NCBI GenBank assembly: GCA_963701665.1
Contig: OY969622.1
Coordinates: 428,132-492,131, forward strand
DNA: 64,000 bases
DNA from: Candidatus Babeliales bacterium
Lineage (GTDB): Bacteria; Babelota; Babeliae; Babelales; JANWKD01
Reading direction: 5' to 3'
Shown: positions 882 through 14,135 of the stretch, in pieces
Position numbering within the stretch: the stretch's first letter is position 1
Layout of the letters: every line of letters starts with the position of its first letter
Notes under the pieces: generated by a model
Databases searched by the model: none
What the model was told of the DNA's origin: nothing
What the model saw: only the letters and a program-made list of their open reading frames with translations
Made by a program: the position numbers and the translations under genes

Positions 882-917
882 TGTCATTCTGAGGAGCGTA
901 GCGACGTAGGAATCCAG
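882..917. repeat. Solitary TGTC-tagged REP-like palindrome
   Basis: tgtcattctgag-gagcgtagcga-cgtaggaatcca; near reverse complement of 1225-1259. Confidence 0.85.
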
Positions 918-9198: not shown

Positions 9199-10587
9199 TT
9201 GCGTTAATACGTGCGCGCATTTATATACATTCCCAGCTCCTTGAAATAAGATCAAATCATCTGGTGCAACGATTGCATCAAGATTTCGTTTCAATAATGA
9301 AAAATGTTCTTCATAAGGAACATAGGTAACTGAAAACCGTGGATGCCGTTTTTGAATCGCTTTTGCTAAATTATGCGCGGTAATTTCTGGCAGCGGTGAT
9401 TCACTCGCTGCATAAATATCAGTAATAATGAGATGATCAATGGGACTTTGAACGAGTGTATCGATAAAAAGATCCCACAAAGCGTACGTTCGCGTAAAGC
9501 GGTGAGGTTGAAAAACGACCGTAAGTTTTCCGGACGCGCGTTTGCGATGGAAGGCAACTTCGAGGGTATTCTTAATTTCTTCCGGATGATGCCCATAGTC
9601 GTTGAAAATCTCTGCACCTTTATAGATGCCATTAAAACTGAAACGGCGTTCAACACCTTTGAAATTTGCTAATGCTTGTTTGATATCGGCAAATGGAATT
9701 TCAAGTTCTAAGCATACTGCAAGCGCAGCAAGCGCATTCTGCACATTGTGATTACCCGGCATGGGAATCGTGAGCTTTCCGAGCATCTGTTGCTGATAAT
9801 ATACGCAGCAGGTGGATTGATGTGGCTCTAACACAACATTGTTTGCCCGTATATCGGCTGCTGCATCCAATCCGTATTTTACGATTTTTAAATGAGAGAG
9901 TGGTAATAGGGATCGTACATTTGCATTATCGATGCAGAGAAATGCTTTACCGTAAAAAGGAATGTTGTTGAGAAAGTGCTTAAAAGTATTTTTGATGTCA
10001 TCGACATCACGATACACATCAAGATGTTCAGGGCTAATATTAGTAACCACGGCAAGTGTTGCTTGCAAATGTACTAATGATTTGTCACTCTCATCTGCTT
10101 CAGCAACTAAAAAATCACCTGAACCAAATTGTGCATTGGTTGAAATAGTTTTTAAATGTCCGCCAATAATAACGGTCGGATCTTTTTTAGTTTCGATAAG
10201 AATATGTGAGATAAGTGATGTGGTTGTTGTTTTACCATGGCTGCCAGCGATCGCAATGCTATATTTTGTGCGCATAAGTTCAGCTAACATCAATGCGCGC
10301 GGAATGGTAGGGATGGCACGCGCTTGTGCCGCACGTATTTCAGGGTTGTGCGCGTGAATGGCTGAAGAATATACCACAATATCGATGCTTTCATCATGGC
10401 AAGAAGGGGTATTGTTTCCTTCATAAATTGCGCATCCAAGATTTTTTAAATCATGAATACTTTTTTGATCGAGATCAATATCGCATCCTGAAATGGTATA
10501 GCCTTGATAGCGCAGAATTTTTGCAATGCCGCTCATGCCAATGCCGCCGATACCAACAAAATGAAGATGCACTTTTTTTCTATACAT
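9187..10587 (-). CDS. murC: UDP-N-acetylmuramate--L-alanine ligase
   Basis: FVGIGGIGMSGIA, AGSHGKTTTT, EADESD, DYGHHPEEI, VFQPHRFTRT. Confidence 0.97.
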   Translation of the reverse strand: MYRKKVHLHFVGIGGIGMSGIAKILRYQGYTISGCDIDLDQKSIHDLKNLGCAIYEGNNTPSCHDESIDIVVYSSAIHAHNPEIRAAQARAIPTIPRALMLAELMRTKYSIAIAGSHGKTTTTSLISHILIETKKDPTVIIGGHLKTISTNAQFGSGDFLVAEADESDKSLVHLQATLAVVTNISPEHLDVYRDVDDIKNTFKHFLNNIPFYGKAFLCIDNANVRSLLPLSHLKIVKYGLDAAADIRANNVVLEPHQSTCCVYYQQQMLGKLTIPMPGNHNVQNALAALAVCLELEIPFADIKQALANFKGVERRFSFNGIYKGAEIFNDYGHHPEEIKNTLEVAFHRKRASGKLTVVFQPHRFTRTYALWDLFIDTLVQSPIDHLIITDIYAASESPLPEITAHNLAKAIQKRHPRFSVTYVPYEEHFSLLKRNLDAIVAPDDLILFQGAGNVYKCAHVLTQQKK

Positions 10588-10739
10588 ACATGATTCCCAA
10601 TTTTTATTTACAGATTAGTTGTTATAAAATAACAAAAATGTTTCTGTTCTACAAACTGACAACAATACTATAGAGGTTGATTAGCTGAGAGAATCCATAG
10701 AAATATCCAGTGCGCATGGAAATATGCTTAGGGAAATGT

Positions 10740-10829
10740 TGTCATTCTGAGACAACGAAGTTGTCGTAGGAATCCAATCTGATAAGGATTTTCATTTTAA
10801 AGACTGGATCCCTACGTCGCTATGCTCCT
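10740..10829. repeat. REP-like doublet whose second arm is split by IS110 (remainder at 12029-12038)
   Basis: tgtcattctgag-acaacgaagttgt-cgtaggaatcca ... tggatccctacgtcgctatgctcCT|[IS]|caggatgaca restores a normal arm. Confidence 0.92.
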
Positions 10830-10843
10830 TGTATGTTAAAACA

Positions 10844-11050
10844 AAAAGCATTTAAGAGTAAATTGTGATAATTTAAGAATGAAATATTGTTTAATATCGG
10901 TTGTTTGAGAAAAGCTGATAGATCTCGTCACGCTCCTGGTTTAGAAGAACCGTTCCTGAGTTTGAGACTATCAGCTTACACAAAATTACCTCGAACAATC
11001 ACTAGAGACGTATTAGGTATACGATCTCGTATGTTTACAAGGCTGAGGTA
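10844..11050 (+). ncRNA. Predicted IS110 bridge RNA (target- and donor-binding loops); 5' end approximate
   Basis: TBL stem aagctgatag(10912-21)/ctatcagctt(10968-77) with guides acgctcct and tcctgag; DBL stem tacctc(10987-92)/gaggta(11045-50) with guides acaatcact and tacaag. Confidence 0.88.
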
Positions 11051-11053
11051 TTT

Positions 11054-11995
11054 ATGAAAAACATAGCAGAAGTATATGTAGGTGTCGATATTTCAAAAAA
11101 TAATCTCGATATTTATGTGTATCCTATAGGAAAATTCTTTAAAGTAGCTAACTCAGAAGTTGGCATACAGAACATAATCAAGGAATTAGCTCACTATCAA
11201 GTTACACAAATTGCCTGTGAAGCAACAGGTGGCTATGAACAATTACTTGCCCAATTACTCAAAAAGAACCGATATTCACTTTGGATCGTTGATCCACGAA
11301 GGATAAAAGCTTTTATTATAGCTACTGGCTGTAAAAGTAAAACCGATAAAATTGATGCTAAAAAAATTGCTGAATTCGCTTCTAAAAATTCTCCTAGTTA
11401 CGAGATTGTTAACAAAAGTGAGAATCAGCATAAACTACAAGCTCTAGTTAACCGTAAAAATGATTTAGTAAAATTTTTAGCTGCTGAGAAAACACGACTT
11501 AAACATCCTTCTCACGTATTATATGTTCCTGATATAAAAAGATTTATTGCACTCTTAGAAAGTGAAATTAAATCAATTGAGTCTCGAATACAGGATTTAG
11601 TCAAAGATGATGAAGAGTTACATACAAAATCAAACATTTTGGAATCAATCCCAGGAATCGGTAAAGCTACAGCTGCAACATTACTTTCTTTTGTCCCTGA
11701 GCTTGGGCAGTTAAGCGACAAAAAAATATCCGCTCTAATTGGTGTCTGTCCTTATGACAATGAAAGCGGCAATTACAAAGGCAAAAAATTTATTAAGCAT
11801 GGCAGGCATATTCCTCGTAAAGCACTTTATATGTGTGCATTGACCACGGTAAAGCACCATCTTCCTTTAAGGGAATTTTACCAGCGATTAATGGATGCTA
11901 AAAAACCTTTTAAAGTAGCTATCGTTGCTATTATGCATAAGCTCATTATAATTGCCAATGCTCTATTAAAAAGGGGCGAGTTATGTAGAGCTTGA
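11054..11995 (+). CDS. IS110-family DEDD recombinase/transposase
   Basis: RuvC-like GVDISK, CEATG, KTDKID; C-terminal SIPGIG, GVCPYDNESG (putative catalytic Ser), AIMHKL. Confidence 0.97.
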   Translation: MKNIAEVYVGVDISKNNLDIYVYPIGKFFKVANSEVGIQNIIKELAHYQVTQIACEATGGYEQLLAQLLKKNRYSLWIVDPRRIKAFIIATGCKSKTDKIDAKKIAEFASKNSPSYEIVNKSENQHKLQALVNRKNDLVKFLAAEKTRLKHPSHVLYVPDIKRFIALLESEIKSIESRIQDLVKDDEELHTKSNILESIPGIGKATAATLLSFVPELGQLSDKKISALIGVCPYDNESGNYKGKKFIKHGRHIPRKALYMCALTTVKHHLPLREFYQRLMDAKKPFKVAIVAIMHKLIIIANALLKRGELCRA

Positions 11996-12007
11996 CTATA
12001 AAAATAT

Positions 12008-12013
12008 TTGACT
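12008..12013 (+). promoter_or_regulatory. -35 box (TTGACT) of the IS110 circle-junction promoter; -10 TATGTT at 10832-10837
   Basis: In the joined ends the two hexamers are 17 nt apart. Confidence 0.75.
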
Positions 12014-12098
12014 TTTAACACAATCACTCAGGATGACATCCACCAGTTTAAAATGTTACTTTGCTAATGCTTATGCTCACTATGGGCAGATACATTAC

Positions 12099-12455
12099 TT
12101 ACAGTAATTCGCGTATTTTTAATAATTTTTGTCGGAGTTCAATAAGTTGTTCAACGGATACTGAAAGCACGTTTGTTTGGTTTGACTCCATCGTAGTTTT
12201 TGAAGCGAACAAAGCGTGATTTTTTCCCAATTTTAATGCCTCTTTTGCACCCGCTATGGTAAACTTTTTTTCATAGAGAAGTTCTTTAATCTTACTGAAC
12301 GTTTTTAGATCTTTTTCTTGATAGAAGCGCTGGCCACCTTCTGAGCGCGAAGAATGTACATTGAATTCTTTCTCCCAGAAGCGAATTACAAAGCGTTCAA
12401 CGTTGAGGTGTTGTGCAAGTTCTCCAATACGAAATTGTCGTTTGTTCATTTTCAT
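12099..12455 (-). CDS. MerR-family transcriptional regulator
   Basis: FRIGELAQHLNVERFVIRFWEKEF, GGQRFY; start reassigned to ATG 12455. Confidence 0.9.
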   Translation of the reverse strand: MKMNKRQFRIGELAQHLNVERFVIRFWEKEFNVHSSRSEGGQRFYQEKDLKTFSKIKELLYEKKFTIAGAKEALKLGKNHALFASKTTMESNQTNVLSVSVEQLIELRQKLLKIRELL

Positions 12456-12617
12456 AAATACTCTTCCTTTTTTAAAAGACCTTGTTTTTTTATATAGCTC
12501 AAAATTTAAGTTTTGTATATAAAGATCATCCTTTTGCACTGGATCAAACAGGGAATCTTTGCTATTCTAACTATACTTTGTTTTTCATCCCCGCTATTTT
12601 CACTCATAAGGATTTAT

Positions 12618-14135
12618 ATGAATATTAGAGAATTGTTGATTGTGTTACCTTTGGCGATTTTGACGAGTTTGGGGATACAATACTTCTTTGGTATACGCAA
12701 GGAAGTCCCAACAATTCAGGAAGATCAAAGACCCCTCAATCTCAATGTTACGTTTGTTGAGAAAAAAAATCCTAAAAAACCGGTTATTACTGAGTTTGAA
12801 ACAGAGCATGCGCGGTATAAATTCTCCACTGAAGGTGCATCACTTGAAAATGTAGAATTTAAGCGCAATTGGGGTGGTAAAGAAGGGTATCTGACAACTA
12901 TCTTCCCGCCGGATGCTGAGAACAAGGCTGATCGAGCATTTTTTGTTGCATTGCCGGATGCTACGCCCTATTATTTCGATCTCGTTGATAAACAAGTATT
13001 TGATGATCGCATTGAAATTTCGTACAGCGCAGCATTTAATGATGGGATAATGCGCAAAAAGTTCGTCGTATACAAAAATCTTTTCAAAATAGATCTTATT
13101 ATTTCTCTAGAGCCAAAAAACGCTAACGGCACTCAGTTACGCATGTTCTTACCTGCGCCTATTGTGCCGGAATTGAGAAGCAAAGATATTCTTAAAGGCC
13201 TAGCTGGCGATGCGAATGATACCATCACGAGTGTTGCAATCACCGATGCGAGTGCAAAATCGTGGCGTACGCCGACACTATTTGGCGCTCAAGATCGTTA
13301 TTTTGTACATGCGTGTGTGGCTGATGAGAACAATTTTATTGATCGAGGGTATTTCAATGTTGTTGATGAGCACCATCTTTTTGCGATTTTAGAAAGTCCA
13401 GAAGTGCGTGAACCCTCAACATGGACACTTTCATTTTATGTAGGGCCTAAAGAAGATGAAGCACTCGTTGCTGTAGACCCTCGTTTAGAACAAACGCTCA
13501 ACTACGGTTGGTTTGGGAGAATCTCTCGTCCTGTTTCAAAAATATTATTGCACATTTTAAAACGTATCTATGACTATTGTCATAATTATGGCATTGCCAT
13601 TATTATTTTGACCTTCTTGATGAAAATTATATTGTTTCCTTTTACGTATAAAAGTGAGCAAGGCCTTAAGAAAGGCATGGAATATCAAAAGAAGATGGAG
13701 CATTTGCAGCACAAATACAAGCATGATAAAGAAGGGTTGCGCATTGCACAAGCAGAATTAATTCGAAAGCATGGTATCCCAGGTATTGGCAGTTGTTTGC
13801 CTATGCTGTTATTACAAATGCCGCTTTTTATAGCATTAGGCTGGGTTATTTCTAACTCGATTGAATTATTTATGGCACCGTTTTTATGGATCCACGATTT
13901 ATCAACGCCTGATCCTTACTATATTTTGCCCGTATTGATTCTACTATCGATGATGTTTCATACACCAACTGCTGGTGCAGCGAACGATCCAAAGAAGCGC
14001 GTTTCAACATTTGCGACTGCATTACTTTTTGCCGCATTTGCGACTACCGTTTCTGCTGGGTTAGGTTTGTATCTTTTTACAAGCACAGCGTTGGGAGTAG
14101 CCCAAGCACAGCTAACAAAGAGATTCTTTTCATGA
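12618..14135 (+). CDS. yidC: Membrane protein insertase YidC
   Basis: FYVGPK, NYGWFG, NYGIAIIILT, GSCLPMLL, FLWIHDLSTPDPYYILP; start ATG 12618. Confidence 0.95.
   Translation: MNIRELLIVLPLAILTSLGIQYFFGIRKEVPTIQEDQRPLNLNVTFVEKKNPKKPVITEFETEHARYKFSTEGASLENVEFKRNWGGKEGYLTTIFPPDAENKADRAFFVALPDATPYYFDLVDKQVFDDRIEISYSAAFNDGIMRKKFVVYKNLFKIDLIISLEPKNANGTQLRMFLPAPIVPELRSKDILKGLAGDANDTITSVAITDASAKSWRTPTLFGAQDRYFVHACVADENNFIDRGYFNVVDEHHLFAILESPEVREPSTWTLSFYVGPKEDEALVAVDPRLEQTLNYGWFGRISRPVSKILLHILKRIYDYCHNYGIAIIILTFLMKIILFPFTYKSEQGLKKGMEYQKKMEHLQHKYKHDKEGLRIAQAELIRKHGIPGIGSCLPMLLLQMPLFIALGWVISNSIELFMAPFLWIHDLSTPDPYYILPVLILLSMMFHTPTAGAANDPKKRVSTFATALLFAAFATTVSAGLGLYLFTSTALGVAQAQLTKRFFS

Follow-up and report, generated by a model that had tools for sequence, protein, structure and literature searches.

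An IS110-group insertion sequence in a Babeliales genome with a probable left-end bridge RNA that reads its own ends and a host repeat

The DNA analyzed here, a stretch of 64,000 nucleotides from the genome of a Candidatus Babeliales bacterium (contig OY969622.1, positions 428,132 to 492,131; "the window," whose own numbering is used below), contains an insertion sequence of the IS110 group. Very probably, this element carries in its left end (LE) a bridge RNA system of the IS621 type, which recognizes a repeat of the host genome as well as the ends of the element itself. The reading is carried by features observed directly in the sequences compared, i.e., the anatomy of the element and the structure of its copies, the complementarity of the guides, the covariation of guides with targets and of stem partners with each other, the catalytic residues of the recombinase, and a promoter motif at the joined ends. 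The IS110-group features tested were all found here, except a 5′ stem-loop. Transcription, binding of the RNA by the protein, and the chemistry of recombination are presumed by analogy with IS621. Since bridge RNAs have already been predicted for thousands of orthologs and for 85.7% of the IS110 elements catalogued (PMC11208160), the element is one more example of a known system. The features referred to in the text are the following.

10740..10829, + strand: left part of a host repeat (REP/MITE-like), about 100 nt once rejoined with 12029-12038; contains the left target and CT core at 10822-10829
10830..12028, + strand: IS110-group insertion sequence, 1199 bp, with an LE of 224 nt and a right end (RE) of 33 nt; boundaries set by flank divergence among three copies
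10832..10837, + strand: candidate -10 hexamer TATGTT in the left end, partner of the RE -35 across the joined ends
10910..10979, + strand: predicted target-binding stem-loop (fold z -4.54; stem covariation; guides match the flanks and covary with them)
10987..11050, + strand: predicted donor-binding stem-loop (fold z -2.35; guides equal the RE terminus or complement the LE terminus)
11054..11995, + strand: recombinase gene, 313 amino acids (aa), RuvC-like DEDD domain plus Tnp domain, catalytic equivalents D12, E56, D98, D101, and S238
12008..12013, + strand: TTGACT, a candidate -35 hexamer on the RE side; after joining, it would be the counterpart of the -10 at 10832-37
12020..12028, + strand: left donor (the terminal 9 nt of the element, CT core included); sequence conserved in element 2, L005, L006, and the G001 element (see below)
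12029..12038, + strand: right target (CAGGA, 12029-33) and remainder of the interrupted host repeat, from sequence, flanks, and a repeat census

The element, its copies, and its recombinase

The host genome is a single contig of 1,337,192 bases with 37.3% G+C. A DNA search of it identified three copies of the element that are 100% identical over the 1199 bp of window 10830-12028 (element 1) and a fourth copy, in locus L004, that is 73% identical (element 2). In an alignment of the flanks of the three identical copies, the left boundary falls directly behind ...GCTCCT, and the last letters of the element, ...ACAATCACT, precede C(A/G)GGATGACA, which defines an element of 1199 bp with CT at both junctions. 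This CT core adjoins the element on its left side (10828-29) and makes up its two final bases on the right (12027-28) in all three copies, and all three are inserted at one shared position of one repeat family. The region from 10700 to 12200 holds a single open reading frame (ORF), of 313 aa at 11054-11995, with 224 nt of noncoding sequence before it and 33 nt after it. Genes neighboring the element encode a Mur ligase, a MerR-family regulator, and YidC.

The predicted protein matches Pfam PF01548 (DEDD_Tnp_IS110; 8.9e-22) and PF02371 (Transposase_20; 1.1e-17), as well as the NCBIfam model NF033542, "IS110 family RNA-guided transposase," at 202.5 bits against a cut-off of 140. Its matches in the PDB include the ISCro4 transposase (9t56; 3.3e-37) and the IS621 transposase (8wt6, chain 8wt6_A; 1.5e-35), both over residues 8-308. 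Residues D12, E56, D98, D101, and S238-G239 align with D11, E60, D102, D105, and S241-G242 of IS621, whose chain numbering is offset by two in the 8wt6_A alignment; the roles of the IS621 catalytic residues are described in PMC11208158. By a hand count of the identity line, roughly 100 of the 301 aligned residues, about one third, are identical to IS621. The closest named recombinase relative, with 59% aa identity, is that of L005, from a Candidatus Babeliales metagenome-assembled genome (MAG). That the element comes from a poorly studied lineage, as the initial annotation supposed, is plausible. The recombinase ORFs are open and without stops. Judged from its sequence, the protein is a full-length IS110 recombinase with its DEDD and Ser residues, as the initial annotation had it when calling a compact IS110 recombinase of 313 aa; both domains are kept.

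The element at 10830-12028 is intact and probably recently active. The opposite reading, i.e., that it is a decayed or domesticated relic whose RNA motifs persist while the element itself is immobile, could draw on the occupation of only 3 of the 43 copies of the host repeat and on the contigs of four DNA sequencing runs (short low-depth pieces only), among which no joint, circle junction, or empty site of the locus was seen. Against it stand the 100% identity of the three copies over 1199 bp and their open ORFs, the retention of the five catalytic residues, of both guide loops, and of the junction promoter motif, and the existence of a relative of 78% DNA identity with five copies in a same-genus genome, G001. 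Three identical copies with open frames and intact motifs make a dead relic very unlikely. The search of sequencing runs listed no RNA run with element sequence.

Two candidate empty sites were rejected. A loose end at 10829 turned out to be another repeat copy of the genome. The second was the interval of about 50 nt that separates murC from a merR-like gene in G001 (L098, G001:C7:87300-88600, compared with window 10200-12700); it is no precise empty site, repeat and element both being absent there, and the two were thus either gained here or lost in G001. Elsewhere in the host genome, one copy of element 1 (C1:528785-529983) and the single copy of element 2 (534762-535940) lie about 4.8 kb apart on the same strand, and recombination between them is conceivable, given their identical donor ends.

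Loops, guides, and the host repeat

The target-binding loop has a 10-bp closing stem (10912-21/10968-77) and an inner GGTT/AACC stem (10938-41/10948-51) that forms a short hairpin between the two guides. A second stem tier of 5 bp pairs TCTCG (10923-27) with TGAGA (10963-67), leaving a smaller exposed loop than the initial annotation implied. The left target guide (10929-10937, CACGCTCCT) lies on the 5′ side of the internal loop. Within it, ACGCTCCT (10930-37) matches the left flank ATGCTCCT (10822-29) at 7 of 8 positions and the repeat at window 887-900 at 8 of 8. On the 3′ side, the right target guide TCCTGAG (10954-10960) is the exact reverse complement of CTCAGGA (12027-33). The donor-binding loop is closed by 6 bp, TACCTC (10987-92) with GAGGTA (11045-50), and has an inner stem of 9 bp (11005-13/11019-28). 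Its left donor guide ACAATCACT (10995-11003) is identical to the RE terminus at 12020-28 (9/9), and its right donor guide TACAAG (11036-11041) is the reverse complement of CTTGTA at 10828-33, i.e., the core plus the start of the LE (6/6). Candidate handshake guides follow the right guides in both loops, TT at 10961-10962 in the target loop and GC at 11042-11043 in the donor loop.

All coordinates, stems, guide strings, and matches that the initial annotation had given for these two loops were recovered in the sequence. It had equated the four-guide layout around a CT core with the bridge-RNA mechanism of IS621, and here too the comparison agrees in architecture. In IS621, the left guides pair with the bottom strand, and hence read as the top strand, while the right guides pair with the top strand; the core is included in all four guides, and the target loop precedes the donor loop (PMC11208160). 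Guide order, strand polarity, and CT core of the present element match this definition exactly.

Folding, proposed at the outset as a check, was in line with the two loops. Taken by itself, the hairpin of the target loop has a folding energy of -25.4 kcal/mol (z -4.54), which none of 200 shuffles reached; for the donor-loop hairpin, z is -2.35 and 5 of 200 shuffles are as good, and for the whole 210 nt, z is -2.48. The donor loop of element 2 was unrecovered by single-sequence folding (z -0.61). No 5′ stem-loop was evident at 10845-10909, where z is +1.19 and 179 of 200 shuffles fold as well, and RNAalifold predicted no consensus pairs for the 5′ region from five relatives.

The four guide matches were also compared with chance, using random sequences of the first-order composition of the left end. 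Single guide matches occurred in 662, 157, 22, and 1450 of 20,000 such sequences and two or more in 72; all four were held by none (0/20,000).

The repeat into which the element is inserted has 43 copies in the genome according to a census by loose regular expression, 3 of them occupied by the element, and further copies match window 10717-10829 at 84 to 97%. It is a composite palindrome of about 100 nt, with arms TGTCAT.CTGAG...GTAGG.ATCC and GGATCC..ACGTCGC....CTCCTC.GGA.GACA and an AT-rich spacer between them. The best match to the 14-mer specified by the guides is an unoccupied repeat copy at genome position 1322478 (13/14). Seven more repeat copies match at 12/14, including window 887-900 (minus strand, genome 429018), while the occupied sites match at 12/14 (two copies) and 11/14 (one copy); the guides thus fit the repeat consensus better than they fit the occupied sites. 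As read from these matches, the guides would specify a host repeat family, and the claim that the element has a target specificity of its own holds.

Element 2 has its target in a second repeat family, of which at least eight further copies keep the 9-nt left target intact. Copies of this family, of the form ...CATTGATGCTGCGCATCATGATTTTGAGCT-TGTCGCGCT-AC..., are found at L004 1400-1440 and at genome positions 29874, 47612, 157027, 415635, 1261831, 1310117, 429410, and 30214; the one at 429410 falls inside the window, at about position 1279 on the minus strand. With regard to host biology, two repeat families of a reduced genome serve as landing pads for elements that are very probably RNA-guided.

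Target choice may depend on more than pairing and also require that the repeat have a certain structure or context (e.g., a hairpin). Such a requirement, which would add to the main reading, would explain why all copies occupy a single position of the repeat family and why the best-matching copy is empty. All three copies do lie at the same point of the same family, the guides fit the unoccupied copy at 1322478 better than they fit the occupied sites, the insertions of element 2 and the G001 element likewise lie in repeats, and a preprint on ISPpu10 describes a sequence-structure dual-match logic (10.64898/2026.03.19.712850). However, since 43 repeat copies offer near-identical sites, insertions would be limited to repeats even if pairing were the sole determinant, and three insertions are too few to give meaning to an empty best site. 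We regard the additional requirement as possible, if clearly the less probable case, and retain guide pairing with the repeat as the main reading.

Covariation of guides, targets, and stems among relatives

Sister elements with the same termini and donor guides differ in their target loops. In element 2, termini and donor guides are the same as in element 1 and loop 1 contains TGTCGCGCT and CCGGTAG; the left guide matches the element's own left flank, which ends in TGTCGCGCT, at 9 of 9 positions and the right guide its own right flank (ACAGG after CT) at 6 of 7. The G001 element, again with the same termini and donor guides, has GTCAAGCT and GTCATAG in loop 1. Four of its five copies are inserted in ...GGCAAGCT | ATGGC..., with 7 of 8 matches for the left guide and 6 of 7 for the right guide. 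In the fifth copy, L093 (G001:C6), the right guide matches at 6 of 7 positions and the left at only 3 of 8. L005 and L006 (uncultured-bacterium MAG), each with 59% aa identity, also have their own target-loop guides and target sequence. L005 matches at 5 of 5 positions in the right half and at 2 of 7 in the left, a true poor left match. L093 and L005 look like natural half-match insertions, and their poor left halves resemble, by analogy, the half-match insertions described for IS621 (10.64898/2026.08.31.748434).

For the wider set of orthologs, element ends were located independently of the guides under test, the RE via the donor guide and the LE via the right donor guide. Twenty-three sources were kept, among which the RE was found in 16 and the left boundary, by an exact 6-mer, in 9; L009 (a duplicate of L008) and L070, L080, and L082 (weak matches) were dropped. 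Over 16 loci, 70 of 80 positions of the right-target guide agreed with the guide's own flank, compared with a noncognate mean of 1.3 of 5, and 0 of 20,000 permutations scored as high. For the left-target guide, the count was 37 of 63 positions over 9 loci against a noncognate mean of 1.75 of 7, with 1 of 20,000 permutations as high. The low left scores of L037, L008, and L050 are due to one-column register shifts of otherwise matching strings; the right-end call of L050 is doubtful because its core reads AA. Guide-target covariation among orthologs, suggested initially as a check, is thus borne out on both sides of the core. Overall, the target-loop guides differ between relatives and the donor-loop guides are conserved.

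A covariance model was built from five close sequences in a single round and searched against 72 sources, i.e., the window, L004, and 70 of 80 loci (L022-L026, L030, L032, L058, L059, and L067 were omitted as further copies from genomes already included). Twenty-four of the 72 sources had a match at E<=0.05, on the + strand and just upstream of the recombinase gene; at this threshold, and with a model made from only five close sequences, the other 48 had none. In the host genome, the model gave exactly four matches, each directly upstream of one of the four recombinase genes, and hence no orphan bridge RNAs. A search of window 10000-13000 against Rfam 15 (E<=10) returned no bridge-RNA match, a result to be read bearing in mind that Rfam may or may not hold such a family; the matches to BMV3_UPD-PK3 and MIR171_1 were discarded as chance-level and outside of or unrelated to the RNA. 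The covariance-model search advised by the initial annotation was therefore positive with our own five-sequence model and negative with Rfam.

Among 22 orthologs, 88.2% of 669 stem cells pair, compared with 35 to 43% when the partners are slid by one to three columns, bearing in mind that such counts favor structure because the alignment was fitted to the model. In the same 22-row alignment, compensatory changes were seen in 31 of 33 stem pairs, including 15 of 15 in the closing stem of the target loop, and 97.3% of the cells of the donor-loop inner stem pair across orthologs.

These data bear directly on a rival reading of the left end, i.e., as a mere 5′ leader with subterminal protein-binding repeats in which the flank matches are coincidental and the protein alone picks the target. 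Taken alone, the donor-side matches can be read as subterminal direct and inverted repeats, and the closing stem of the donor loop overlaps the ribosome-binding site (RBS), as a leader structure might. But the matches of the loop 1 segments lie in DNA beyond the ends of the element; segments and flanks vary in step in element 2, the G001 element, and the orthologs while the protein stays homologous; and all four matches together occurred in 0 of 20,000 random sequences. A simple leader is, on this evidence, extremely improbable, and we continue with the left end as very probably encoding a bridge RNA.

Joined ends, proposed mechanism, and known systems

Joining the ends of the element creates the motif TTGACT-17-TATGTT. 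The same arrangement is found in element 2, L005, and L006, and L007 has TTGATT-18-TATGAT; of the relatives examined, these four are the closest. In the integrated copy, no promoter-like site was found on the + strand upstream of the RNA. From the position of the motif, transcription would start near 10844. In IS621, expression is driven by a junction promoter and is weak from integrated copies (PMC11208160; PMC13626964), and the predicted junction promoter and the integrated copy without a promoter-like + strand site upstream of the RNA fit that account.

The handshake guides of IS621 are the nucleotides just 3′ of the right guides; they pair with positions 6-7 of the noncognate DNA after exchange and should not pair with the cognate DNA (PMC11208158). 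In the present element, U10961 is complementary to donor A7 and G11042 to target C7, and no pair would form at the cognate positions. Pairing of the first handshake nucleotide with the noncognate position 7 was also counted among relatives, with 13 of 16 loci for the target loop (donor position 7) and 8 of 9 for the donor loop (target position 7). The donor-loop nucleotide is G here, opposite target C, and C, opposite target G, in element 2, L005, and L006.

In the mechanism proposed here after that of IS621, excision would join the right and left ends, and the RE-LE junction would thereby assemble a sigma-70-type promoter, with the -35 from the right end and the -10 from the left end, from which a bridge RNA of about 200 nt would be transcribed from the left end. 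The target-binding loop would pair with a 13- to 14-nt site in the host repeat, the left guide in top-strand sense and the right guide in antisense, and the donor-binding loop would pair likewise with the joined element ends. Strands would then be exchanged at the shared CT core by a tetramer of the 313-aa DEDD/Ser recombinase, and the first nucleotide 3′ of each right guide, complementary to the noncognate position 7, would pair with the top strand after exchange.

The 3′ arm of the donor-loop closing stem includes GAGG (11045-48), 5 nt before the ATG at 11054, which is the only evident RBS of the recombinase; the overlap of RBS and closing stem is also seen in element 2, L005, L006, and the G001 element. 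As this GAGG pairs with CCTC (10989-10992), folding of the bridge RNA would hide the RBS. Tentatively, and as a reading that we consider rather unlikely in its joint form, the bridge RNA may have been reprogrammed naturally among three sister elements and the RBS overlap may act as a switch between guide and messenger. With regard to the first part, three same-genus sisters with one donor loop and three target loops would each be aimed at a different repeat family and, their donors being identical, the RNA of each sister could move the circles of the others to its own repeat. With regard to the second, a transcript in the folded guide form would be closed to translation, and one in the open form would be unable to guide. 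A guide/messenger switch via the RBS is not described in the passages of the bridge-RNA papers compared, and in the Durrant paper the words ribosome, Shine, and RBS are absent.

The element leaves the understanding of the mechanism unchanged. It adds a compact bridge recombinase (313 aa, 1199 bp), found in a small AT-rich genome for which Babeliales MAGs are the nearest named relatives; among the matches listed in our literature search, no paper joined an IS110 or bridge recombinase with Dependentiae or Babeliales. It also offers a natural experiment, in that three close relatives share a donor loop and have three target loops with known natural targets. With the donor loop shared and the target loops different, the loops could be exchanged as a way to study handshake positions, the tolerance of mismatches, and the rules of programmability.

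Among known systems, IS621 of Escherichia coli is close in nearly every aspect of organization. In both, the recombinase is a two-domain DEDD/Ser protein (residues 8-308, E 1.5e-35), the LE is long and the RE short, the target loop comes first and the donor loop second, and the guides agree in order and strand polarity. Both further have a CT core and handshake guides, rebuild a promoter at the junction (here as a motif only), and have REP-type host repeats as targets. They are also alike in a natural target that departs from the guide-encoded one at one or two distal positions, in IS621 at one (PMC11208160). Differences lie in the size of the protein (313 aa, compared with 326 aa in IS621, with about one third aa identity), in the AT-rich 5′ region without an evident 5′ stem-loop, in the inferred length of the RNA (about 200 nt, compared with 177 nt), in the target and donor sequences, in the donor-loop closing stem that doubles as RBS, and in the host, here with a 1.34-Mb genome of 37% G+C. 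ISCro4 (9t56) is the best match of solved structure (E 3.3e-37, residues 8-308) and agrees in domain order and catalytic motifs; at 341 aa, it is a distant relative, compared by protein only.

The IS110 group is distinguished by a long LE and short RE from the IS1111 group, which has a short LE and a long RE with the RNA downstream of the gene (PMC11208160). Elements of the IS1111 group (bridge/seekRNA) share with the present one the recombinase family and the principle of RNA-guided target choice. Unlike theirs, the RE is here only 33 nt long and the RNA lies upstream of the gene; this RE, together with the location of all the model matches upstream of genes, does not fit membership in that group. 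The L005, L006, and G001 elements have termini and donor guides identical to those of the present element and the same RNA architecture, as well as, in the two scored for it (L005 and L006), the same junction promoter motif, and each differs in having its own target-loop guides and target sequence.
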